A stretch of 64,000 bases of DNA, from assembly GCA_038087875.1 (NCBI GenBank), contig CM075993.1:1242001-1306000 (forward strand). Reading direction: 5' to 3'. This DNA is from Malacoraja senta. Lineage: Eukaryota. Shown here in pieces: positions 1-63,107 of the stretch. How positions within the stretch are numbered: position 1 is the stretch's first letter; the number at the start of each line of letters is the position of its first letter. The notes under the pieces were generated by a model. The model had not been told where the DNA came from. It saw only the letters and a program-made list of their open reading frames with translations, and did no database searches. The translations under genes and the position numbers were made by a program.

Positions 1-1459
1 CAGTGGGAAAATGTTCTACTGTCTACTCCTCCTATCCCTCACAAGGTCTTACAAACATCTCCATCGGGTCTCTTCCCACCCTCTGACGCTCCAGAGAAAG
101 CAATTCAAACCTGTCCAACCTTTCCTGATAATTAATACTCTTTAATCCAGGCAACTTCTTGGTGAACCCCTCCCTTCCCCCCCCCCCCCCCTCCCTTCCA
201 AAGCCTCCACATCCTGTCTATAATGCAACAACCAGAAAGGCACACAGGTCTCCAAATGATAACCAAAGTTATCATCGAGTCACACAACACTTCCCAAGAT
301 GCTTCCATATAATGTGAAAGTCCTACCCTGGTTTGACTTCCTAAAATGCAACACCTCACACTGTATCTGAATTAAACTCCATTTGTCATTCCTCAGCCCA
401 CTTATCCATCCCTCTGTGATTCCTGATAACGGTACCTCTGTAGTGTATGTAATAATGTATATAATGGTAACTATAATTTAAAGAAGTGAGTAGCAGGATG
501 GTGTGATTTGTGTCATGTGATATATTCATTATCTTGTCAGTCCCATGAATATGTATGAACATGCGCAGTGTACTTTTATAAAATAAAGAAGACCCACACT
601 GGCAACAGCGTGGACTGAAAACCTGTGCTTTGTTTTCTATCTACATGCTGCTGCCGTAATATCTTACAACCACCTATTTTAGTGACATCTGCAAAAGGCA
701 TCAGTCACGTAACTATACCTATATGCCCCATGTTTAGTCCAGATAATGAAAAAGCAAGAATAAGACATCTACATGACTGGCAAGATGGATTTTGACCTCG
801 GATACCATTTGCAGCAAAGCTAGCCAAACATCAATCAAACATCAAACAATGATTGTGGAACAAGCTACCAGAGGAAGTCGTTGAGGCAGGGACTATCCCA
901 ATGTTTAAGAAACAGTTATAGACAGGCACATGGATAAGACAGATTTGGAGAGATATGGGCCAAATGCAGGCAGGTGGAACTAGTGTAGCTGGGACACGTT
1001 TCCACACTGTATCACTCTAAGTAGTAAATGCAATTGATCAGTTTGTCCTAGCAGAGGGCACAAACTAACTGTGGAACCCTGTTGAACACCATTGAAGCCA
1101 GCTGCAATAACACAAAAGAATGCTTGGAGTTTTAAATAAATACTACATGTGGAATAAAGAACATGACAAATTCCTATAAAATATTACAAGAGCAGACAGC
1201 AATTTGAGCAATCTAATTTTCACATTCCTTTCAAAGACAGACAGACCAAGGACCAGGAAATTAAAGACAGCAATTTCATTCAGGTCAATGAAAATTTAGC
1301 CTCCTGTTGAAAATGAAATTTATCATAATTGTTGTTATAATGAAACAAATGTAGATATTATATTTCTTTTAATCAGTTATATTTCTATTAAACATTTCAA
1401 CATTTAATATTGCCACCACAGAAAAGCTGATTATGAAGTCATGTTTCCCATTCACAGAA

Positions 1460-1653
1460 GATAAGACACAGAATGCTGGAGTAACTAAGCGGGACAGGCA
1501 GCATTTCTGGAGAGAAGAAATGGGTGACGTTTCGGGTCGAGACCCTTCTTCAGACTTCATCTCTCCAGAGATGCTGCCTGTCCCAAATGAGTTCCTCCAG
1601 CATTTTGTGTCTATCTTCGGTTTAAACCAGCATCTGCAGTTCCTTCCTACACA
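1460..1653. mobile_element. Fold-back PLE terminal-repeat insertion
   Basis: Inverted arms; 16-bp TSD TTTCCCATTCACAGAA (1444-1459 and 1654-1669). Confidence 0.9.
1526..1553 (-). ncRNA. Minimal type I hammerhead ribozyme core (PLE-associated)
   Basis: Minus strand CTGAAGA-A-GGGTC-TC-GACCC-GAAAC-GTC: CUGANGA box, stem II, GAAA box and GUC triplet. Confidence 0.75.
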
Positions 1654-1709
1654 TTTCCCATTCACAGAATACGCAACATTGTAGTCCATTCTACTGTATT
1701 TTATGTTAC

Positions 1710-1799
1710 CTCAGATAATTTATAGGGTAGGATAAGTCTTTCTCCAACTGTCACAGTCTTCCGGGTGGTCAGTGCATCAAAAAGTGTCTCCTCTTTAAC
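1710..1799 (-). CDS. MYO9A: Myosin IXa coding exon (exon 9); gene continues past window start
   Basis: 90 nt; VKEETLFDALTTRKTVTVGERLILPYKLSE; aactag|GTT ... GAG|gtaaca. Confidence 0.95.
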
Positions 1800-5280: not shown

Positions 5281-5449
5281 TTTAAGAAGGAACTGCAGAT
5301 GCTGGAAAATCAAAGGTACACAAAAATGCTGGAGAAACTCAGCGGGTGAGGCAGTCTGAAGAAGGGTCTCAACCCGAAACGTTGCCTATTTCCTTTGCTC
5401 CATAGATGCTGCCTCACCCGCTGAGTTTCTCCAGCATTTTTGTCTCCCT
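5281..5449. mobile_element. Fold-back PLE terminal-repeat insertion nested in an old CR1 fragment
   Basis: 15-bp TSD TAGATACCGTG(G/A)ATG (5266-5280 and 5450-5464); hammerhead core at 5356-5383. Confidence 0.88.
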
Positions 5450-5777
5450 TAGATACCGTGAATGATCACAGGCTTTTTTCTACTGTAGGGGAGTTTAGGT
5501 TTAAGATGAGAGGGAAAAGATTTAAAGGGGACGTAAGTGGGCAATGTTTTTCAACAAAGGTGATGGATATATGCATTTAATGTGATAGAGGCAGGTACAA
5601 TTATAATGTTTAAAAGGCATTTTGAGAGGTTCATGAAAAACAAAAGTTTAGAGAGTTGTGGATCAAATATTTGCAACTACAACTGGCTCTGGAAGGCATG
5701 TACGAGTTGGAACGAAATTCTTATTTCTGTGTAAATGACTCTATTTGCGGTATATGAGGCAACTACCCTTGGACAAA

Positions 5778-7086
5778 TCATTGGACAAAGTCAGCATGGA
5801 TTTACGAAAGGTAAATCATGTCTGATGAATCTTATAGAATTTTTCGAGGATGTAACTAGTAGCGTGGATAGGGGAGAACCAGTGGATGTGGTGTATCTGG
5901 ACTTCCAGAAGGCTTTCGACAAGGTCCCACATAAGAGATTAGTATACAAACTTAAAGCACATGGCATTGGGGGTTCAGTATTGATGTGGATAGAGAACTG
6001 GCTGGCAAACAGGAAGCAAAGAGTAGGAGTAAACGGGTCCTTTTCACAATGGCAGGCAGTGACTAGTGGGGTACCGCAAGGCTCAGTGCTGGGACCCCAG
6101 CTATTTACAATATATATTAATGATCTGGATGAGGGAATTGAAGGCAATATCTCCAAGTTTGCGGATGACACTAAGCTGGGGGGCAGTGTTAGCTGTGAGG
6201 AGGATGCTAGGAGACTGCAAGGTGACTTGGATAGGCTGGGTGAGTGGGCAAATGTTTGGCAGATGCAGTATAATGTGGATAAATGTGAGGTTATCCATTT
6301 TGGTGGCAAAAACAGGAAAACAGACTGTTATCTAAATGGTGGCCGACTAGGAAAAGGGGAGATGCAGCGAGACCTGGGTGTCATGGAACACCAGTCATTG
6401 AAAGTAGGCATGCAGGTGCAGCAGGCAGTGAAGAAAGCGAATGGTATGTTAGCTTTCATAGCAAAAGGATTTGAGTATAGGAGCAGGGTGGTTCTACTGC
6501 AGTTGTACAGGGTCTTGGTGAGACTACACCTGGAGTATTGCGTACAGTTTTGGTCTCCAAATCTGAGGAAGGACATTATTGCCATAGAGGGAGTGCAGAG
6601 AGGGTTCACCAGACTGATTCCTGGGATGTCAGGACTGTCTTATGAAGAAAGACTGGATAGACTTGGTTTATACTCTCTAGAATTTAGGAGATTGAGAGGG
6701 GATCTTATAGAAACTTACAAAATTCTTAAGGGGTTGGACAGGCTAGATGCAGGAAGATTGCTCCCGATGTTGGGGAAGTCCAGGACAAGGGGTCACAGCT
6801 TAAGGATAAGGGGGAAATCCTTTAAAACCGAGATGAGAAGAACTTTTTTCACACAGAGAGTGGTGAATCTCTGGAACTCTCTGCCACAGAGGGTAGTCGA
6901 GGCCAGTTCATTGGCTATATTTAAGAGGGAGTTAGATGTGGCCCTTGTGGCTAAAGGGATCAGAGGGTATGGAGAGAAGGCACGTACGGGATACTGAGTT
7001 GGATGATCAGCCATGATCATATTGAATGGCGGTGCAAGCTCGAAGGGCCGAATGGCCTACTCCTGCACCTAATTTCTATGTTTCTA
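5778..7086 (+). mobile_element. CR1-clade LINE, 5'-truncated young copy with uninterrupted reverse transcriptase C-terminal ORF
   Basis: QHGFTKGKSC..VYLDFQKAFDKVPH..GVPQGSVLGP..KFADDTKL, open to stop at 6997; short 3'UTR ending in a TTCTATG-type tail. Confidence 0.95.
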
Positions 7087-7327: not shown

Positions 7328-7725
7328 GGTAGACAAAAATGCTGGAGAAACTCATCGGGTGAGGCAGCATCTATGGAGAGAAGGAATAGGCGCATTTCGG
7401 GTCGAGACCATTCTTCAGTGACGTTGGGGGGGGCGTGAAAAAGAAAGGAAGAGGCGGAGACAGTAGGCTTGTGGCAAAGCTGGGAAGGGGGATGGGGTGG
7501 GGAAGGATGGAGAAAGCAAGGACTATCTGAAATTGGAGAAGTCAATGTTCATACCGCTGGGGTGTAAACTACCCAAGTGAAATATGAGGTGTTGTTCCTC
7601 CAATTTGGGCTGGACCTCACTCTGGCAATGGAGGAGGCCCAGGACAGAAAGGTCAGATTCAGAATGGGAGGGGGAGTTGAAGTGCTGAGCCAGCGGGAGA
7701 TCAGGTTGGTTATTGCGAACTGAGT
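7328..7725 (-). mobile_element. Penelope-like element 3' fragment
   Basis: SVRNNQPDLPLAQHFNSPSHSESDLSVLGL..KLEEQHLIFHLGSLHPSGMNIDFSNF plus terminal repeat. Confidence 0.88.
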
Positions 7726-9282
7726 CAGTTCGCAATCTTCAAAATCAAAATCAAAGTAATCAAAATCTTGATTAATGATGGCTAAACATATTCCTGTAAT
7801 ATGGTGACAAAGAGGAACTGTTAGATAATTCTGGGCAAACCACAAAGAACAAATCCACAAAAACAGCGAGGGAAAGCCATGCACACCTGCATTTGTTACA
7901 GTAGCATACATTTATGTATAAAGAAGCGTCTGAAGAAGGGTCTCGACCCAAAACGTCACTTATTCCTTTTCTCCTGTGATGCTCTCTGACCCACTGAGTT
8001 ACTCCAGCTTTTTGTGTCTATCTTGGGTTTAATCCAGCATCTGCAGTTCCTTCTTACACAATTATGTTCCGGATGTTAGCCCAGTATTTGAGGGGCTGCA
8101 CAAGTACTGAGCTCTCAGCTAAATGATGAAACAGTTCGCTTGATGTCATCAACTACGAGTACTTCCTTTTGGGTCAACTTAAAGGTATTAAATTGGCAGT
8201 GCATGAGGGGGTAGTTCATGGTGGGAGCTCAAACAGACAAATAGATCTAATGAGCCCCTCTATGCAGACAGAGAGAGAGTCGGACAAAGAGTTTTCTCAG
8301 GTAGGCAGACAAAGATGACCATAAGGAAACAAGGCAAACCAGAGTGAGGGGCAACAAGATTAGCAGGAAGGCAGTTTGGATGTGGGTGTGCAAGAAGGAA
8401 ATGCGGATGCTGGTTTAAACCAAAGATAGACACAAAAAGCTGGAATAACTCGGCGGGACAGGCAGCATGTCTGGAGAGAAGGAATGGGTGACGTTTTGGG
8501 TCGAGACCCTTCTTCAGACTGAATGTGGATTGGATCTTCAGGTTGGACCCGAAACATCACCCATTCCATCTCTCTAGAGATGCTGCCTGTCGTGCTGAGT
8601 TACTCAAGCATATTGTGTCTATATTCAGGTTGGATGTGGGTACAGCCAAGCAAGCAGTTCCATGCTGCAATTTGAATACATTGTATAGCGATTCATTTAA
8701 TTGCAGAGTTAAGCTCATTCTACAAAGTTAGAGGTACTGTGCTTCAGAGGGGTTTAATTAAAGATAAAATAAAATGACAGGATTAGTATTGTGGAAGGAT
8801 GAGACCAAACAAGCCTTCTTAATTACAAGTGATCATGTGGTATCTCATTAAATGATACCAACTGGAGATTTAACATCAATGATCAAAGCTCATAAAAGGC
8901 TTGACAGAAAGATCTTCAAATAGATACACTGCACCACTGTCAAATGTGATTTTCCTCATGTAATCATTTATTCATGGTGATTTTGCTTTTTGCAAAAGAT
9001 GGGATGAAGAAATGTGCTGAATTTATAAACTGACTTGCATGGTTGCGCATGTTGGCTGTGGAGGGGAGAGGGAGGGGGCTTTTTATAATACTAGATTCGT
9101 AATGATTAAATTCATAAAGATAACCACAGCTTTGAAAAGATGACAGCACATATATTACATCGGGTCAGACATCTGACTTGCTAGGCTTGTTAAATGATAT
9201 AAACTATTCCTGAGATCAGTCACTGGACAAAATGGATCGCCACAAAAATGTCTGAATTTACACACACTTTACAAATTCACAG

Positions 9283-23057: not shown

Positions 23058-23660
23058 GCAATAGACAATAGGTGCAGGAGTAGGGCATTCGGCCCTTCAA
23101 GCCAGCACTGCCATTTACAGTGATCATGGCTGATCATCCACAATCAGTACCTCGTTCCTGCCTTCTCCCCATATCCATTGACTCCGCTATCTTTAAGAGC
23201 TCTATCTAACTCTCTCTTGAAAGCATTCAGAGAATCAGCCTCCACTGCCTTCTGAGGCAGAGAATTCCACAGATTCACAACTCTCTGGGTGAAAAAGTTT
23301 TTCCTCATCTCTGTTCTAAATGGCCTACCCTTTATTCTTAAACTGTGGCCCCTGGTTCTGCACTCCCCCAACATCGGGAACGTGTTTCCTGCCTCTAGCT
23401 TGTCCAATCCCTTAATAATCTTATATGTTTCAATAAGATCCCCTCTCATCCTTCTAAATTCCAGTGTACACAAGCCCAGTCGCTCCTTTCTTTCAACATA
23501 TGACAGTCCAGCCATCCCGGGAATAAACCTCGTGAACCTGCGCTGCACTCCCTCAATAGCAAGAATGTCCTTCCTCAAATTTGGAGACCAAAACTGCACA
23601 CAATACTCCAGGTGTGGTCTCGCCATGACCCTGTACAACTACAGAACGACCTCTTTGCTC
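23058..23660 (-). mobile_element. CR1 LINE 3' fragment
   Basis: ORF 23144-23638 (RPHLEYCVQFWSP...FFTQRVVNLWNSLP) similar to the 5778-7086 copy; CTATTGT-type tail. Confidence 0.93.
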
Positions 23661-37525: not shown

Positions 37526-37883
37526 ACAGATGAATAGGCTAATTATTCCTCTTTGCATCCAGTGCCCCTCCCCTCCCTGTTCATCTGCAATGCCATTCCA
37601 GTTTTTCTATCCAAGTGGATGAACTCCCATGTTTCCACATGTTCCTCTGCCATGTCTTTGCCACTTCACTCAACATTTTTGGAAGTTTGAGTTTAGTGTA
37701 TCCTTCTGTCGTGGAGGTTTAGCGAGATGGGACTAAATGTAATGACCAATTTATGAAAAGTGGCCTACCAGTAATAGAATAATTCAAGCCACTAAAATGG
37801 CATACTTGGATAAAAGTGGAAAATACGTAGATTGGCTGATGTTTGAAACAAGTGTTTTCTATTATAAATTTTCTAGCTCTCGC

Positions 37884-37949
37884 CAGATTGCAATGGTTCT
37901 CAGCAATTGAGTTCAACTAAACTCAATTGCTGAGAACCACTGCAATCTG
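37884..37949. repeat. Near-perfect inverted repeat (30-bp arms, 6-nt loop)
   Basis: CAGATTGCAATGGTTCTCAGCAATTGAGTT-CAACTA-AACTCAATTGCTGAGAACCACTGCAATCTG. Confidence 0.95.
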
Positions 37950-38276
37950 ATGAGAATCAGAATATGAACTTAAGTTAATTTTACTTGAAGGGAAGAAGTA
38001 TTGTCTGCCCCATAAATCTTGATTTAACTGCAAATATGACTGTTTAATGTTGTATGGTAGCTGAATGAGGACAAGTGGTAAAAAATACAAATTAAAAATA
38101 CAGCAAGGTCAGATAAGTAAGCCTTAACTGAACAGCCAAGTAATTTTCTTTGGTTAGTTCCCATGACTGACTCCTTGCAGTCAGCACTTTATCCAGAAAT
38201 ATATAGAGGAGGGGAATAGAAACTAAAGATGGAAAAGTTTGCCCAAGTTTTTTCAGGACATAATCTTCAGGAGGTA

Positions 38277-42783: not shown

Positions 42784-43878
42784 GGTTTAAGAAGGAACTG
42801 CAGATGCTGGAAAATCGAAGGTAGACAAAAATGCTGGAGAAACTCAGCGGGTGCGGCAGCATCTATGGAGCGAAGGAAATAGGCAACATTTCAGGCCGAA
42901 ACCTTTCTTCAGACTGATGTGAGAGGGAGGGGGGGGGGTGGCGGGAAGAAGAAAGGAAGAGGAGGAGTCAGTAGGCTGAGGGAGAGCTGAGAAGGGGAGG
43001 AGAAAGTAAGGACTACTGGAAATTAGAGAAGTCAATGTTCATACCGCTGGGGTGCAAACTGCCCAAGCGAAATATGAGGTGCTGCTCCTCCAATTTACGG
43101 TGGTCCTCACTCTGGCCATGGAGGAGGCCAGGGGCAGAAAGCTTGGATTCGGAATGGGAGGGGGAGTGTAAGTGCTGAGCCACCGGGGAGATCAGGTTGG
43201 TTATTGCAAACCGAGCGGAGGTGTTCGGCGAAGAGATCGCCAAGCCTACGCTTGGTCTCACCGATGTAGAGCAGCTGACATCTAGAGCAGCGGATGCAAA
43301 AGATGCTCCTCCAATTCCCCCCTTGACTCCATTCAAGGACCCAAGCAGTCTTTCCAGGTGTGGCAGAGGTTCACTTGCACCTCCTCCAACCTCATCTATT
43401 GCATCCACTGCTCTAGATGTTAGCTACTCTACATCGGTGAGACCAAGCGTAGGCTTGGCGATCGCTTCGCCAAACACCTCAGCTCGATTCGCAATAACCA
43501 ACCTGATCTCCCAGTGGCTCAGCACTTCAACTCCCCCTCCCATTCCGAATCCGACCTTTGTGTCCTGGGCCTCCTCCATGGCCAGAGTGAGGACCACCGT
43601 AAATTGGAGGAGCAGCACCTCATATTTCGCTTGGGCAGTTTGCACCCCAGCGGTACGAACATTGACTTCTCTAATTTTAGGTAGTCCTTACTTTCTCCGC
43701 CCCTTCTCAGCTCTCCCTCAGCCCACTGGCTCCACCTCTTCTTCCTTCTTCCCCCCCCCCCACCCCCACCCCCGCCCTCACATAGGTCTGAAGAAGGGTT
43801 TCAGCCCAAAACATTGCCTATTTCCTTCGCTCCATAGATGCTGCCTCACCCGCTGAGTTTCTCCAGCATTTTTGTCTA
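42784..43878. mobile_element. Penelope-like element 3' end inserted as a long inverted duplication
   Basis: GIY-YIG C-terminal coding sequence plus terminal repeat in both orientations; 12-bp TSD CTCTCAATATTA (42772-42783 and 43879-43890). Confidence 0.92.
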
Positions 43879-51592: not shown

Positions 51593-51704
51593 GTAGACAA
51601 AAATGCTGGATAAACTCAGCGGGTGATGCTGCCTCACCCGCTGAGTTTCTCTAGCATCTTTGTCTACCTTCGATTTTCCAGCATCTGCAGTTCCTTCTTA
51701 AACA
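51593..51704. mobile_element. Fold-back PLE terminal-repeat insertion
   Basis: 15-bp TSD TATCTTTTA(C/T)CTCAG (51578-51592 and 51705-51719). Confidence 0.87.
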
Positions 51705-53917: not shown

Positions 53918-55423
53918 ATTCAAGACTATCTGTTCCAGACTCTTTGTAGGGTATGTTGAACAATCCCTGCTCCAGTAAATCTAAGGCGTAGCCATGGGCA
54001 TTTGTATGGGCCCCAGCTATGCCTGCCTCTTTGTGGGGTACTTAAAACAGTCCCTGTTCCAGGCGTACAATGGTCCTATCCCAGAACTCTATCTCCGCTA
54101 CATTGACAACTGCATTGGGGCTACCTCCTGCACCTATGCAGAACTCACGGACTTCATTAACTTCATTACTAATTTCCTTTCTGCTCTCAAATTCACTTGG
54201 ACCATCTCCAATATCTCCCTACCTTTTCTTGGTCTCACCATCTCCATCACAGGAGATAGACTTTCAACTAGCATCTATTATTAACCTACTGGCTCCCACA
54301 GCTATATCATTACACTTCTACCCACTCTGCCTCCTGCAAAGACTCTATCCCCTACTCTCAACTCCACTGTCTATGCCACATCTGCACCCAAGATGAGGTG
54401 TTCCATACCAGGATATCTGAGATGTCCTCATTCTTTGGGGAACAGATGTTCCCCTCTTCCATCATAGATGAGGCCCTCACAAGGGTCTCCTCGATATCTC
54501 GCAGCTCCGCTCTTGCTCTCCACTCTTGCTCTCTGCTCCCCAGTCGCAACAGGGAGAATCCCCCTAGTCCTCACCTTTCACCCCATCAGCCGTCGCATAC
54601 AGCATGTAATCTGCTGGCATTTTCGCCACCTCCAATGGGATCCCACCACTAGCCACATCTTCCCATCTCCACCCTTTCCACTTTCCACAGAGATTCGTCC
54701 CTTCCCACCCTTCCCCTATGACTGCAGAAGATACACATCTATCCCTGTTCCTCCCTCGACTCTCTCCAAGAACCCCAACAGTCTTTTCAAGTGAGGCAGA
54801 GGCTCACTTGCCCCTCCTCCAACCTCATCTACTGTATCCGCTGTTGCAGGTCTGGACTTCTATATATCGGCGAGACCAAGCGCAGGCCTGGCAATCGTTT
54901 TACCGAACACCTCCCTCAGTCTGCCTAAACCTACCTGATCTCACAGTTGCTGAACTTTAACTCTCCCTCCCATTCTGACCTTTCTGTCCTTCCCCTCCAC
55001 TGTCAGAGTGACGCCCAGCACAAATTGGAGGAACAGCATCTTATATTTCGCTTGGGCAGCTTACACCTCAGCAGTATGAATATTGACTTCTCTATTTCTT
55101 TTGCTTTCCTTTGCTTGCTTACCCTCTCTCTCCAACCCTCCCTCTTCCTCGTTCACCAACCAGTCTGACTGTCCCCTTGATTAAACTTTATCTCTGTATG
55201 CTTCATTGTCAGCTTCTCCTAGCTAACAATGATCTGTTCTACATTTTCCTTGATCTACATCCCCTTTGATGTCTTGTTCTCACATCTTACACTTCCTTAT
55301 CTCTGTGTCTCCCTCTCCGCTGACTGTCTGAAGAAGGGTCTCGACCCAAAACATCACTCATTCCTTCTATCCAGATAGGCTGCCTGATCTGCTGAGTTAC
55401 TCCAGTACTTTGTGTCTATCTTC
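53918..55423 (+). mobile_element. Penelope-like element, 5'-truncated: RT, GIY-YIG endonuclease remnants and terminal repeat
   Basis: GVAMGICMGPSYACLFVGY..YLRYIDNCIG (RT); NLIYCIRC..YIGETKR..KLEEQHLIFRLGSL (GIY-YIG); frameshifted; flanking direct repeat GCAGAAAAGCAA (53906-53917 and 55424-55435). Confidence 0.9.
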
Positions 55424-58400
55424 GCAGAAAAGCAATTGACAACTTTACCACAGGACAATCAAATCATTTCATCTACAATTCAACAGAGATTTATAATCAA
55501 ACCTAATAAGTTTCAAATCAGTACATGTATCAGGATTCAGAGGCCAAAGCCAACAACTATCAAAGTCGGTTTCTGAACTTCTTTGGAAATAGAAACATCT
55601 GCAATAGAAGAGTTTAGCAAAGAATACTGAGAGGGGTTATAGCTGCTTATCTCAGAATAAAGAGTTGAGAGGAGATTTGAATAAATTGTTAAAAATCATT
55701 AAGTCAAAGGTATAACTAAGGAAAGAACATCCCATTTGTCAATAGCTTGAGAGCCATACATTAAAGGTTGTTGGTAGATGAACCAAAAGGAAAAAAATCT
55801 AATCTGGATTAAAATAAAAATCTTTGTGCAACAAATAGCCATGAAGCAAGATAAATGTAAAACAAAGTGCAATATTGCGAGAATAGACACAAAAAGCTGG
55901 AGTAACTCAGCGGATCAGAGAGCATCTCTGGAGAAAAAGGAATAGATGGAACAGGAACAACCGATTCTTCCCATAAAATGCATCATGGGCTCAGAGAGCC
56001 AAATGGCTATCTTCTCTATAAAAGTTATAATTTTACATTGCCTTTTATGCAGCTCCACAGCTAACATAAATATTATTTTTGGCTTCTTTTCAAAAGAAGC
56101 TTTCAACATTATTTTTGAGCATTCAGTGAGATAATCAACAATCACTTGTTTATGCTGGAGCAACAATGATACAAGAAGATATGCTTACATAAAGATTTAA
56201 TCCATGATTAAATAAATGATCAACACACATGTAAGCACAAATCACAATGTCCACTTAAACCTTCAATCAGAAATAAATTTAATGATTGGATTCCCACACA
56301 ACAGAAATTAACATCTTCCAGAGAAGAGCAACTGGCTGATAAAACAGTTGAAACAAATAAACTTAAGAAGCAAGCAACAGAAATTGCTGAATACCCATTA
56401 TCTTATCTCAGAAAATCCTAACGGAGCTAATTTAGCATTTTAAAAAATTACTTCTGGACGATGAGTCATAGATTTACACTATTCTCAATCCAATAAATTG
56501 AGCAAATTGATCTTGCACTTCATAAAGCAAGTGGATTCTAATCTCTCACTAATGCATGGAATAATCAAGTAATGCCACCCATTTATCTTGAAGTTACGAC
56601 CACTCAACAAATGGATAAGACATTCATGTCGCAAATATCCAGAAATTATACTAAAAGCGTAGATAAAATGGGCATTAGCAATATATACTAATTGTCTAAA
56701 GTCATAGACCAAAATAACTGAAGCCTTCAAATTAGTCACCAGCTTGACCTCAACTGAGATTTTATTTGAGAAATATGGGCGCAGTGCAGACTAAAACTGA
56801 AATAAAAACAATAATGATTCAACAAATGAACAGAACAAAAGACCAGATTGAAAAAAAAAGGGAAACACCTCTTATACATATGGAATGCACAATAGGAAAA
56901 CACGCCATTTGGTTCAAATGATACACAGATATTAACACGATCTTTGCATTGTTAAGAAATTGCCATTACATTAAAATGTATCTAATTCCACCAAAATTAC
57001 CCTTAAACATATCACTTTTAAACTCGTATATTCCAAATCTTCTGATTAGTTTCCCGATTTCTTACTGGATTTATTAGTGACCTGAAGAAGGGTCTCGACC
57101 CGAAATGCGAGTCAGAAGGGTCTTGACCTGAAACGTCATCTAATCCTTCTCTCCATAGATACTGCCTCACCCGCTGAGTTATTCCATCATTTTTGTCTAC
57201 CTTCGATTTTTCCAGCATCTGCAGTTCTTTCTTAAATATTCAAAATGTTGTCGCTTACTAGTGGACTCTTCCATGATTGAAATATTTATGCTCACATTTT
57301 AATGATTTTCTTGGCTCTTAGGTCATTTATTTACATTTTAAAGTATCCCTTCCTTTTAGAACTCAGTCGAACGAAGCTAACCAGAAATAGAATCCAGTAC
57401 TATGACTTTGAACTTCCCAACAAAGTACTTTGAACTCACTACTGAAGAAAATTGCATAGTGGTTGCAGTAATCAGATGTCAGTCATCTGAAAGATTAAGT
57501 GTCTGACATTTGATAGATTGTGCAGTAATCAGAAAAAGCTCTTCAGGTAAATTTTGAGAGTGAAGCGGTACACTAAATATTCCGCCATAGAATACAAAAC
57601 ATTATTTTACACCAATTAGCCTGACACATGCAGTCCAAGTAATGGTATTGACGATACAGTTCCTTTCATACCAAATCTCAATGTTTTAGTTTACATATTT
57701 GGATTTAAAAATCCAATAATTTGTTTCATTCAATTCTAAAATTGCTGCACTCACTCTTGCTGTGATTCCTCCTGCTCTCCGACCACGTTTTAACCGGGAT
57801 TTGCATGTCTTCCATTCCGTTGCCCTGAGTACAATCGATATCTCTCGTTCTCCTTTCCCCCGACTCTCAGTCTGAAGAAGGGTCTCGACCCGAAATGTCA
57901 CCTATTCTTTTTCTCCACAGATGCTACCTGACCTGCTGAGTTACTCCTGCTTTTTGTGTCATTCAACATTACCACATCATTTACCTCCATTTCGTTCTTC
58001 ATTTTACTTATTTCTATGAATGAAATTAAACTAATGGCAGAAAATCCCACATTCAATACAATTTTCCACTGAGCTGGTATCAAAATCACATCAAAATTTC
58101 AATTCATCTTCTCAGCTCTCGTACACAAGCTTAAACATCAAGTTCCTCTTATAAGTATAACTTCATATCCTTCGCATCATAATTTGCCAGTCAAAATAAA
58201 ATCAAAACACAATCTGAACCCTTTGTCTCCAGATTTTGCTTATTCTACTGTGTTCCTCCAGTAAAATGGAGACTGTACAAGGAAATAGATGCTTCAATCA
58301 GTCTGAGAAAGGGCCATGACCTGAAACGTTGCCTATCCGTTCCCTCTACAGATGCTACCTGCTGAGTTACTCCAGCATTTTGTATTTTGCTCAAATTCCT

Positions 58401-58949
58401 CCCAAGATTGTTTTTTTGCTCCAGATTACATGACAACTTCACACTCCTTTGTTTTGCGATTAAGATACACGCGCTGTGCACAATCAACGGCAAAGGTCTA
58501 ATTACCATTTACTGTTTGATGTTATCCATTCAAGATGACAAGATATGAGAAAACCGAATGGCTCTTTTAACATCAGATATTTTCCAATTAAGTTTCAAAA
58601 ATATATAGACACAAAAAGCTGGAGTAACTCAGCGCGTCAGACAGCATCTGTGGAGAAAATAAATAGGTGACGCTTCGGGTCGAGACCTTTCTTCAGATAG
58701 TTCGGGATGTAGTTAAGCGCATCAACTTTCAGACTTAACAAATAACAAACCCCACCATAGCAAGAAAATGCCTTCCACCGTGACATTTCCTGCAGAACCC
58801 CACGGTAAATATGTAAACAAATGTTAATATATTTTGAGGGAAAAAGTCTGTGCTAAACAAACTGTGTTTGCCTCTGACAATTGGACAAGTGGGAGATTTT
58901 AACCGTTACCGCGACCGTCCTTGCCACTGAGGCACATCTATCTACACCT

Positions 58950-60180: not shown

Positions 60181-60949
60181 GGACTTCAGCAGTGTTATAG
60201 GTAACTCCACCATCTCTCCCTCCCCCTCCCCCCATACACCTCCTCCTCTCTTCCCTGTGCCCCACGCACCTCCCCCTCCACCTCCATTACTTCCTCCAGC
60301 TTCACAATTCAAAACTCTTCAGTCTTTTTGTCTCACACCTTTGTCATTTCATCTCCGACCTTCGTTCAGCCACCTACCTACAACAAAACCTTCCTCACCT
60401 GCATACCTGCCAGGAGTTGTTCTGCCTCTCCTCCCTTCTATCTTTCTTCCCCCCCCCCCACTAATACAATCAGTCTGAAGAAGGGTCCCGACCCAAAACG
60501 TCAACTATCCATGTTCTCCAGAGATGCTGCCTGACTCTATGAGTTACCCAGCACTTTATATGTTTTCTTCAGCAGTAAGTGGGTTTATTTATTGTCATAG
60601 TATTCACAGTATTAGGGTGGGTCTTGCTTCCAGCTGTCAGAAAACTGGAAACAGTCAACTCCCACATCTGTTGGATAGTGGAACATATAAGAATGTGTTT
60701 AAGAAGGAACTGCAGATGCTAGAAAATCAATGGTAGACAAAAATGCTGGAGAAACTCAACGGGTGAGGCAGCATCTATGGAGCGAAGGAATGGTGCCAAC
60801 TATGCTTGTGCCAACTATTCACAAGCTGTATCGACTCTCTGGCCAAGGGGACAAAAAGTAACGTTTCAATGTTTGTTTCATGATATGAGATTAAGTGGGA
60901 ATGTGAGCAGAAATGAGGACATAAAGAGGCTTAACGAGGATCTATTTGA

Positions 60950-61298
60950 GTGACAGAAGGACAAAAAGTGCTGGAGTAACTCAGTGGGTCAGGCAACATC
61001 TCTAGAGAACATGGATAGATGACCTTTTGGGCCAGGACCCTTCAAACACACTGATCGTGGCAGATGGAGGAAAATGTTTATCAAGAAGACAGGCACAAAA
61101 TGGCGGACTAACTCAGCGGGACAGGCAGCATCTCTGGAGAGAAGGAATGGATGACGTTTCAGGACGCGTCTGACGAAGGGTCTCAAGCCGAAATGTCACA
61201 CATTCCTTCTATCCAGAGATGCTGCCTGTCCCGCTGAGATACTCCAGCATTTTGTGTCTATCTTCGGTGTAAACCAGCCTCTGCAGTTTCTTCCTACA
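60950..61298. mobile_element. Cluster of PLE terminal repeats (one single copy plus one fold-back pair)
   Basis: Repeated ggagtaactcagcgggacaggcagcatctctggag and its reverse complement. Confidence 0.8.
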
Positions 61299-61689
61299 CG
61301 TGAGGTTTATCCACCTCAGTAGAAAGAAACATAGATACTGAGTATTTTTGAAATGTTGACATTGAATCCATGTCTCAGGAATTTATCATCCAATATCAAA
61401 TTGTACGATCAGATTACATGTTGAGTATTGTGTTAATTTGACATCTAGACATGTTAGGCATTGGAGGTCATCCATGCAGAAGCAAAGAGATGATCGCAGA
61501 TGGAAGGCCTGGGAACGTTTGAATCTTTTCAGCCATGGCAGGAATCAAACCAGAGATAATCTGAAAGATTATTGTAAAAGAATAGCTGGTTAGAATATGA
61601 AGTAAAATGCAGCATAAAGAAAATGATGTCACTTCAAATTAACAGGTATATTCTTAACTAGTATCACATAATTAAATGACCAAATGATT

Positions 61690-62078
61690 GAAAGATACAG
61701 CATAGAAACAGGCCCTTCAGCCCATCGAGTCCACACCGAATATCAATCACCCGTTCACACTAGTTCCATGTTATCCCACTTTCGCATCCACTCTCTATAC
61801 ACTGGGGGCAATTTACAGAGGGCCAATTAACCTACAAACCAAACAATTTTGGGATGTGGGAGGAAACCGGAGAACCTGGAGCACCCAGTCACAGGGAGAA
61901 CGTGCAAACTGCACAAAGACAGCACCCAAGGTCAGGATCAAACTGGGTCTCTGGAGATAGACACAAAATGCAGGAGTAACTCAGTGGGACAGTTGCATCT
62001 CTGGGGAGATGAAATGGGACGTTTTAGGTTGAGCTTCTCTGGAGCTGTGAGGCAGCAGCTCTACCCACTGCACAACTG
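61690..62078 (-). mobile_element. tRNA-derived SINE of the same family, interrupted by a short PLE repeat (~61955-62030)
   Basis: Reverse complement of the 24355-24635 SINE motifs. Confidence 0.75.
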
Positions 62079-62172
62079 AACAGTGCAATAGGACATTAGA
62101 ACCTTATCAGATAGATGAGCGACAATGACTGTATGGGTTTGTGTTCATATAGTGATGGTGATCTCTTATGTA

Positions 62173-62361
62173 GACAAAAATGCTGGAGAAACTCAGCGGG
62201 TGAGGCAGCATCTATGGAGCGAAGGAATAGGTGACATTACGGGTCTCGACCCGAAATGTCAGCTATTCCTTCGCTCCATAGATGCTGCCTCACCCGCTGA
62301 GTTTCTCCAGCATTTTCGTCTACCTTCGATTTTTCCAGCATCTACAGTTCTTTCTTAAACA
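62173..62361. mobile_element. Fold-back PLE terminal-repeat insertion upstream of the SENP8 acceptor
   Basis: 15-bp TSD GTGATCTCTTATGTA (62158-62172 and 62362-62376); ~75-bp arms centred on GGGTCTCGACCC. Confidence 0.9.
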
Positions 62362-62471
62362 GTGATCTCTTATGTAATCTGCCTGCCATCTCTGATATAA
62401 AATTACCTATGTGTGCCTGCAATAAATATGGACAAGAATGTAAAGTGCTTTTGTTGCTTTTCAGGAGCAGC

Positions 62472-63107
62472 ATGAATTCGGTGATCCTAAGCTACCATGA
62501 CAGCTTGATACGGCACTCAGACATGCTGCTGCTCAACCCACCCAACTGGCTGAATGACCACATCATTGGCTTTGCCTTTGAGTACTTTGCCACCGAGCAG
62601 TACAAGGAGCTGCTGGGCAAGGTGTGCTTCATCAGCCCTGAGGTGACCCAGTTTATCAAGTGTACGACCAGTCAGGAGGAGCTGGCCATCTTCCTGGAGC
62701 CGCTCGCCCTGAACCAGAAGAGCTTGGTCTTCCTGGCAGTCAACGATAACTCCGTGCAGGCGGCTGGCGGGTCTCACTGGAGCCTGCTCCACTACAGCAG
62801 GGACAAGGACTGTTTCAGCCACTTTGATTCCTGCAGCAGCATGAACGAAAGCCATGCCCGTCAGATTGCCAGGAAACTGCAGCACTTCTTGGGAACCAAA
62901 TCTGAAGTGCCTTTCTTAGAAGAGCTGGCGCCAGTCCAGAAAAACAGCTATGATTGTGGGATGTACGTTATCTGTAACACAGAGGTTCTTTGTGAGCAGT
63001 ACCTCAGGGGTGAGCAGAGGCCACTGATGATGGTCATCACACCATCTTACATCACCCAGAAGAGAGTTAGCTGGAAAAAGCTGATTGAGCGGTTGTCGAA
63101 GGAATAA
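62472..63107 (+). CDS. SENP8: Sentrin-specific protease 8 / NEDD8-specific protease (NEDP1/DEN1), 211 aa, single coding exon
   Basis: MNSVILSYHDSLIRHSD...WLNDHIIGFAFEYF...GGSHWSLL...HFDS...QKNSYDCGMYVICN, with a Ulp1-family His-Asp-Cys triad. Acceptor ttgcttttcag|GAGCAGCATG at 62464/62465, so the track's ATG at 62409 is intronic. Confidence 0.96.
   Translation: MNSVILSYHDSLIRHSDMLLLNPPNWLNDHIIGFAFEYFATEQYKELLGKVCFISPEVTQFIKCTTSQEELAIFLEPLALNQKSLVFLAVNDNSVQAAGGSHWSLLHYSRDKDCFSHFDSCSSMNESHARQIARKLQHFLGTKSEVPFLEELAPVQKNSYDCGMYVICNTEVLCEQYLRGEQRPLMMVITPSYITQKRVSWKKLIERLSKE

Follow-up and report, generated by a model that had tools for sequence, protein, structure and literature searches.

A minimal hammerhead motif in a MYO9A intron of Malacoraja senta is probably an inert relic of an abundant Penelope-like element

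Does a hammerhead core that lies in sense orientation in an intron of a host gene cut the pre-mRNA of that gene, or is it a leftover of the element that carried it there? We addressed this question for a core at 1526-1553(-) in 64,000 nucleotides of Malacoraja senta DNA (contig CM075993.1, positions 1,242,001 to 1,306,000; this whole stretch is hereafter the window, and coordinates are counted from its first letter). The large exon at 36611-35766(-) is that of MYO9A, with 93% identity to Callorhinchus myosin IXA, and Myosin_head and RA domains were found in the gene. The exon upstream of the core (1710-1799, minus strand; donor GT at 1709-1708) was placed by exon mapping as the eighth coding exon, and its label as exon 9 assumes one preceding non-coding exon. 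A 57-nt MYO9A exon of the alternative type is present at 10814-10758(-); the Callorhinchus entry that we used is without it. The Peptidase_C48 exon at 62301-63107(+) fits SENP8, and fragments with long open frames at 5735-6997(+) and 23144-23638(-) presumably belong to CR1-type LINEs. Two copies of a 10,764-bp segment that includes three MYO9A exons, 100% identical to each other, lie on either side of a 200-N gap (window-relative -12388 to -1625 and -1424 to 9339). This is probably an assembly overlap, because of which the 1526 copy occurs twice in the assembly, and the duplicate segment was excluded from later counts.

The preliminary description of this DNA had reported an intact core at 1526-1553(-), sense to MYO9A and about 155 nt past the exon 9 donor. 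This holds: the 28 letters match exactly and the distance is 156 nt. The order of parts is a 2-bp helix I, CUGAAGA, an extra A, a 4-bp helix II, GAAA, an ACGU palindrome, and GUC or GUU, so that CUGANGA, GAAA and NUH stand in type I order. The extra base lies between positions 9 and 10.1, and there are a G10.1-C11.1 pair and a palindromic helix III; an extra base, this same pair and a palindrome are the features by which Cervera and De la Pena 2014 (PMC4209133) define the minimal hammerheads of Penelope-like elements (PLEs). The earlier identification as a minimal type I hammerhead in a PLE terminal repeat thus agrees with the anatomy described there, and the remark that helix I is short is borne out by its 2 bp. 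In the 1526 copy the minimal core consists of CUGAAGA, the extra A, helix II (GGGU/ACCC with a CUCG loop), GAAA, ACGU and GUC, with the predicted cut between 1526 and 1525; including helix I, in which GU at 1555-1554 pairs with AC at 1525-1524, it spans 1524-1555(-). The insertion as a whole is a 194-bp fold-back stub, in which an inverted copy of the long tail (1557-1653, plus strand) is followed by a forward stub of the terminal repeat (pLTR) that runs from the modal 5' boundary, 31 bases before the cut site, to the short tail end at +66 (1460-1556, minus strand). Because of the inverted copy, RNA of the insertion folds back into a hairpin, and 16-bp target-site duplications flank it upstream (1654-1669, minus strand) and downstream (1444-1459, minus strand).

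This copy is one of very many. At up to 2, 4, 6 and 8 mismatches in the 28 bases, the window holds 11, 17, 24 and 27 core copies, respectively, including every example listed beforehand (that given as 58670(-) spans 58669-58696). The 264 kb around and including the window contain 102 core matches, 5 of them in the duplicated assembly segment, vs 0 in each of 5 base shuffles. Genome-wide, the exact 33-mer occurs 10,212 times and an intact core with paired helix II 58,086 times, with zero matches for the reversed-pattern controls and an even split of the hammerhead copies between the two strands. With such numbers of exact and core-intact copies, the 1526 copy is ordinary. Most copies had been said to be damaged at CpGs, in keeping with the loss of G12 or of the ACGT palindrome in 21 of the 27 window copies; G12 is the most often changed position (60 of 169 copies). 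All core bases are kept in 7 of the 27, and core bases together with helices I and II in 4: 1526(-), 5356(+), 42885(-) and 57872(+). The intact core at 5356-5383(+) is antisense to MYO9A, and that at 57872-57899(+) has intact catalytic bases and an AUGU palindrome. A core at 8490-8517(-), with the ACGU palindrome and without G12, is the nearest sense partner of the 1526 copy, 7 kb away, and the tandem pair at 57082-57137(+) has damaged cores. Three copies (60475, 61170 and 62233; 60475-62260, plus strand) lie upstream of the SENP8 coding exon, on whose side there is a fold-back at 62187-62305. Long hairpins were also seen at 37868-37965 and 51609-51651, and the latter touches a copy of the pLTR tail.

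The element that carries the repeat could be traced within the window and beyond it. As had been noted, the repeat terminates PLE coding fragments: the core follows GIY-YIG fragments at 7391(-), 18547(+), 42885(-), 43788(+) and 55328(+). The fragment at 7391-7760(-) comprises the GIY-YIG C-terminal part, the 3' UTR and a damaged core, whereas that at 42885-43420(-), sense to MYO9A, ends in a core with intact catalytic bases and an AUGU palindrome. It overlaps an opposite-strand GIY-YIG fragment with a G12-less core (43150-43815, plus strand). A decayed PLE at 53990-55425(+) retains reverse transcriptase (RT) motifs, GIY-YIG, 3' UTR, the damaged core at 55328 and the tail. Among 20 RT loci fetched, the core stands at the 3' end of the element in 17, and where the end of the ORF is intact it lies about 100-120 nt beyond the stop codon. 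The unit measures approximately 3.9-4.1 kb, encodes RT and GIY-YIG, and has the hammerhead at the junction of tandem units: locus L268 contains head-to-tail units spaced 3,891 bp apart at 99.7% identity, L269 has the layout pLTR-ORF-pLTR, and L270 includes an inverted 5' copy. RVT_1 (E 6e-6) and GIY-YIG (E 1e-3), both below the Pfam cut-offs, were found in a single frame of 968-1020 aa. An RT followed by a C-terminal GIY-YIG in one ORF, and tandem or partial-tandem units that form pLTRs next to inverted 5'-truncated copies, are as expected of an endonuclease-bearing (EN+) PLE. The CX4CxxC linker between RT and EN in L268 falls within the CX2-5CxxC form that is described as the mark of Neptune and also of Nematis (PMC8557442). 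Close relatives of the element were found in sharks and rays. Just beyond the long tail, at L268:6221-6230, the likely first ATG of the ORF sits within a strong donor-like AAG/GTATG, which may point to an intron close to the ORF start like that of Drosophila virilis Penelope. We conclude with confidence that the repeat is the pLTR end of an abundant PLE with a Neptune-type linker and a known minimal type I hammerhead, and that the solo copies in MYO9A introns, 1526 included, are very probably inert insertion fossils.

To what extent has the hammerhead been conserved? Six 3'-UTR groups comprising 59 copies were compared, and majority changes fall in loop II, at N17 and at two positions that face a U. 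In one small group (n=6) most copies have G12A; in each of the other five groups the majority sequence of the core is unaltered. For covariation we aligned 41 copies, taking up to 8 per 3'-UTR group, those closest to the reference, and 94.9% of the cells in these aligned copies are paired. In helix I, 9 of 33 rows have a U-A/U-G change on one side only. The covariation across helices I and II that the preliminary description had named as a test did not emerge: a single cell of 198 is changed on both sides, which is no more than in shuffles. The power of this comparison is low because the subfamilies are close (91% identity). A covariance-model search, also proposed at that stage, gave no support either, as none of the 17 Rfam matches in the window (E up to 5) is to a hammerhead family; those on fold-back copies are to hairpin-type miRNA models only. 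A seemingly compensated subfamily of 725 copies, in which both bases of pair 10.2-11.2 are altered, was rejected. Of 30 loci fetched from these pattern matches, 18 (L144, L146, L147, L150-L154, L159-L162, L164 and L168-L172) represent one and the same copy, a palindromic pLTR stub arranged head to head whose helix II has an A-A mismatch; it lies in another repeat and was amplified along with this host repeat. Because these 18 ride as passengers, the set is mute on selection. A young repeat (L278:1903 and L280-L299; 95-99% identity; 2,045 candidates) has a hammerhead-like core of another sequence, CUGAUGA...GAAACGUU, whose helix II is poor, and no usable covariation was obtained from this repeat. 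As judged from sequence, the hammerhead structure is compatible with selection on the source elements, of which covariation gives no proof.

We then considered the RNA of the 1526 copy. Folding models, which ignore tertiary contacts, Mg2+ and proteins, predict a hairpin of -112 kcal/mol in which helix II forms with a probability of 0.75-0.88, stabilised by the inverted arm. In the same prediction U4-G5-A6 pair with U16.1-C17-A1.1, helix I has a probability of at most 0.001, and adopting the hammerhead fold costs 4.8 kcal/mol. For the bare 32-mer, the double hammerhead (-4.1 kcal/mol) is predicted to be 7 kcal/mol less stable than two monomers (-11.0 kcal/mol). In five of six other copies folded, helix II is predicted not to form. 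The insertion has probably persisted, since the repeat is reached from both flanks in two other organisms: in the contigs of organisms D and F both flanks run into the repeat, extending 33 and 25 bases into it from one side and 20 from the opposite side, a reach that stops short of the core and of which only the 33-base one meets our bridging rule.

The preliminary description had further proposed that MYO9A and SENP8 pre-mRNAs carry many latent self-cleavage modules. The counts do not bear this out: MYO9A has 3 fully intact sense copies among 37, none of the three SENP8-side copies (60475, 61170 and 62233, plus strand) is fully intact, sense copies are not depleted in gene interiors, and the catalytic bases of 1526 are predicted to mispair. 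The gene interiors analyzed were 23, totalling 1,133,336 bases, and consisted of MYO9A and of stretches between ordered Pfam hits, with the strand inferred. In these, 138 of 264 copies are sense, as are 23 of the 40 fully intact ones (95% interval 0.41-0.73). A deficit of sense copies would be expected if cleavage harmed the pre-mRNA, and none was seen, which is modest evidence. Weak selection would escape this test, since CR1 copies, which served as the control, were not significantly biased either (45 of 101 sense). At odds with a plainly neutral picture, sense orientation is the commoner one among copies that keep every core base (61 of 97, p=0.014), and fewer sense copies have lost G12 by G-to-A change (32 of 136 vs 48 of 125 otherwise, p=0.011). 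A non-catalytic CpG in the loop has the same skew (17 of 138 sense vs 28 of 121, p=0.03), but the CpGs of helix III and the tail have little, so that mutational asymmetry is likely and not proven; a transcription-linked mutation bias is the likely cause of the skew between sense and antisense CpGs. One polyA RNA run from the related organism F, made from an unstranded, fragmented library, gave 11,591 reads of the family, whose ends do not pile up, and 0 reads on the MYO9A exon.

The ends of the copies are informative about the RNA from which they were made. In 566 copies from 1.25 Mb, 3' ends cluster at about +61 to +67 and +89 to +101 from the cut site, two clusters roughly 30 nt apart that correspond to an optional tail of 30-40 bp, and solo copies span the start of helix I to one of these two tail ends. 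For 5' ends, 499 copies were scored, and removal of 51 attached to the ORF side and of 16 with pyrimidine-rich flanks left 432. Of these, 156 begin at -34 to -27 vs 25 at -3 to +4, and the commonest single start is an A at -31 (41 copies). A genomic footprint of cleavage, that is, a pile-up of 5' ends at the cut site, is therefore absent from this set, and the pile-up at the start of helix I instead suggests that uncut RNA was copied. The simplest reading is that the stub boundary is the 5' end of the RNA, at an initiator-like TCAGTCT; this sequence, with its A at -31, fits the initiator consensus YYANWYY. The reading is in line with the internal promoter of Drosophila virilis Penelope (PMC2377424). 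An extra G that would derive from the cap is present in 5 of 14 copies. Among 179 boundary copies, 70 have an inverted arm, 74 have unique flanks and 7 a tandem flank; where flanks are shared, most of them consist of other variants of the 3' UTR. An upstream exon that would complete helix I by splicing was also considered and rejected, as the boundary copies have no upstream exon in common. We propose that reverse transcription would start inside the RNA at the two tail ends and run to its 5' end just before the core, after which the short product would insert, the template being uncut RNA. Judging from its relatives, any cleavage would take place in RNA of the element itself, in a dimer and with the help of protein, and not in host pre-mRNA.

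These observations allow the alternatives to be weighed against one another. It is quite possible, if not the reading that we favour, that the sharp 5' boundary reflects pausing or fold-back of the RT at the palindrome TCAG-N-CTGA, or a splice acceptor, with CAG/T following a stretch of pyrimidines. The inverted arm in 70 of the 179 boundary copies suits the former, and the pyrimidine-rich tract and CAG that precede the core suit the latter; against both stand the 74 unique flanks, the 3' UTR variants among the shared ones, the lack of a common upstream exon, and the match of TCAGTCT to the initiator consensus, with the A at -31 as the commonest boundary. For D. virilis, an intron that ends at helix I is described (PMC4209133). 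A different proposal, that the motif has ceased to act as a ribozyme in the element as well and is kept as a promoter or protein-binding sequence at the start of the RNA, seems to us unlikely. Several observations speak for it: the 2-bp helix I with a single two-sided change that shuffles match, helix II predicted to be unformed in most other copies folded, the inclusion of the uncut site in inserted copies, the unimpaired in vitro insertion of hammerhead mutants (PMC11167929), and the spread of Naiads, which lack hammerheads (PMC8557442). It has to contend with a core that is unchanged in the majority in five of six groups with differing UTRs and tails, with changes at tolerated positions, and with a relative in Anolis that cleaves on addition of protein (PMC11167929).

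Less probable still is that some intronic copies, possibly that at 1526, cleave host pre-mRNA, with the junction clamped by the inverted arm and helix III provided by another copy or by a chaperone. The core at 1526 is indeed intact, its arms close a very stable hairpin and its insertion probably persisted, yet the predicted pairing register mispairs the catalytic bases, helix III cannot close in a monomer, and the nearest sense partner, at a distance of 7 kb, has no G12. The sense lean of core-intact copies likewise has to be set against the undepleted sense strand among fully intact ones and, less forcefully given the library, against the missing read-end pile-up. Inversions can yield a perfect long helix I: in L236, where the inverted parts meet at the junction of helix I, this helix runs uninterrupted for 67 bp around an intact core and has a predicted probability of 0.77, the one such case in 25 loci examined among 2,037 pattern matches. 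For known systems, PMC4209133 describes minimal PLE hammerheads as inactive in monomers and of low activity in dimers, the dimer cleavage being cited also in a review (PMC6765202). According to Frangieh et al. 2024 (PMC11167929), the Anolis ribozyme, the one case studied in purified form, needs the protein of its element, is dispensable for in vitro insertion and has no RNA-seq ends at the cleavage site. It is thus most likely that the 1526 copy does not cut host RNA.

An extended version of the RNA-start reading is tentative, and we consider it unlikely to be right in full. According to it, the RNA starts three bases before the core at TCAGTCT, so that a 2-bp helix I is all that the primary transcript can form; the ribozyme would be a protein-gated switch that clips a capped 31-nt leader, the stubs would be strong-stop copies of uncut RNA, and a few fold-backs would build a perfect long helix I and with it new, possibly active intronic ribozymes. 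Were the intronic copies to cleave, about one intact core per 33 kb would amount to a large hidden load on splicing, and the evidence points away from this. The repeat is real, was rightly identified and is an ordinary member of the known class of PLE hammerheads; only the RNA start and the rare long-helix-I inversions are leads of interest. A known PLE hammerhead feature is now extended to cartilaginous fish at very high copy number, and with the stub ends the in vitro finding that uncut RNA serves as template gains a footprint left in vivo, which bears on the purpose of PLE hammerheads.

In the literature on PLE hammerheads and chondrichthyan PLEs that we searched, a scope that leaves aside subscription papers, Repbase and Dfam, no paper is devoted to the repeat family of the MYO9A intron, and the terms shark, skate, Leucoraja, Callorhinchus and Raja do not occur in the supplementary files of PMC4209133 other than file 1. 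Non-LTR retrozymes, which are likewise PLE-derived, hammerhead-bearing and often intronic, have been reported in one chondrichthyan genome (bioRxiv 10.64898/2026.07.22.740005). That class was considered and rejected: it needs tandem non-coding monomers of several hundred bases, whereas here there are solo or fold-back stubs of about 100-200 bp, with a tandem flank in 7 of 179. In anatomy the repeat is close to the metazoan PLE minimal hammerheads, among them those of fish Neptune, Poseidon and Xena, as described in PMC4209133, which are also of type I, lie in pLTRs, have one base between positions 9 and 10.1, a G10.1-C11.1 pair and a palindromic 15.2-16.2, and mostly occur as dispersed single motifs with some opposite-strand pairs. 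Compared with those of Schistosoma in the same paper, helix II has 4 bp here vs 7-8 there and helix I 2 bp vs 4-5. The D. virilis Penelope variant shares the 2-bp helix I and a helix III with a 2-nt palindromic insertion, and differs by a bulge in helix II (PMC4209133). The 58,086 copies counted here compare with about 4,000 in coelacanth and about 9,000 in Xenopus, which were obtained with another search method (PMC4209133). PAc, the Poseidon element of Anolis carolinensis (PMC11167929), resembles the present element in its tandem units, in the place of the hammerhead where units join, in a tail delimited by two 3' ends of copies and, as we infer here, in an uncut RNA template; its two internal RT starts and its tail of 30-40 nt are matched by our 3'-end clusters. 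The ORF of PAc starts in stem II, whereas here the likely start is about 160 nt past the core, and Poseidon is without the CX4CxxC linker that the present protein has. The EN+ PLEs Neptune and Nematis (Craig et al. 2021, PMC8557442) are alike in the C-terminal GIY-YIG, the CX2-5CxxC linker, partial tandems, inverted 5'-truncated copies and a tail of 30-40 bp, a likeness in domains, linker and copy structure.
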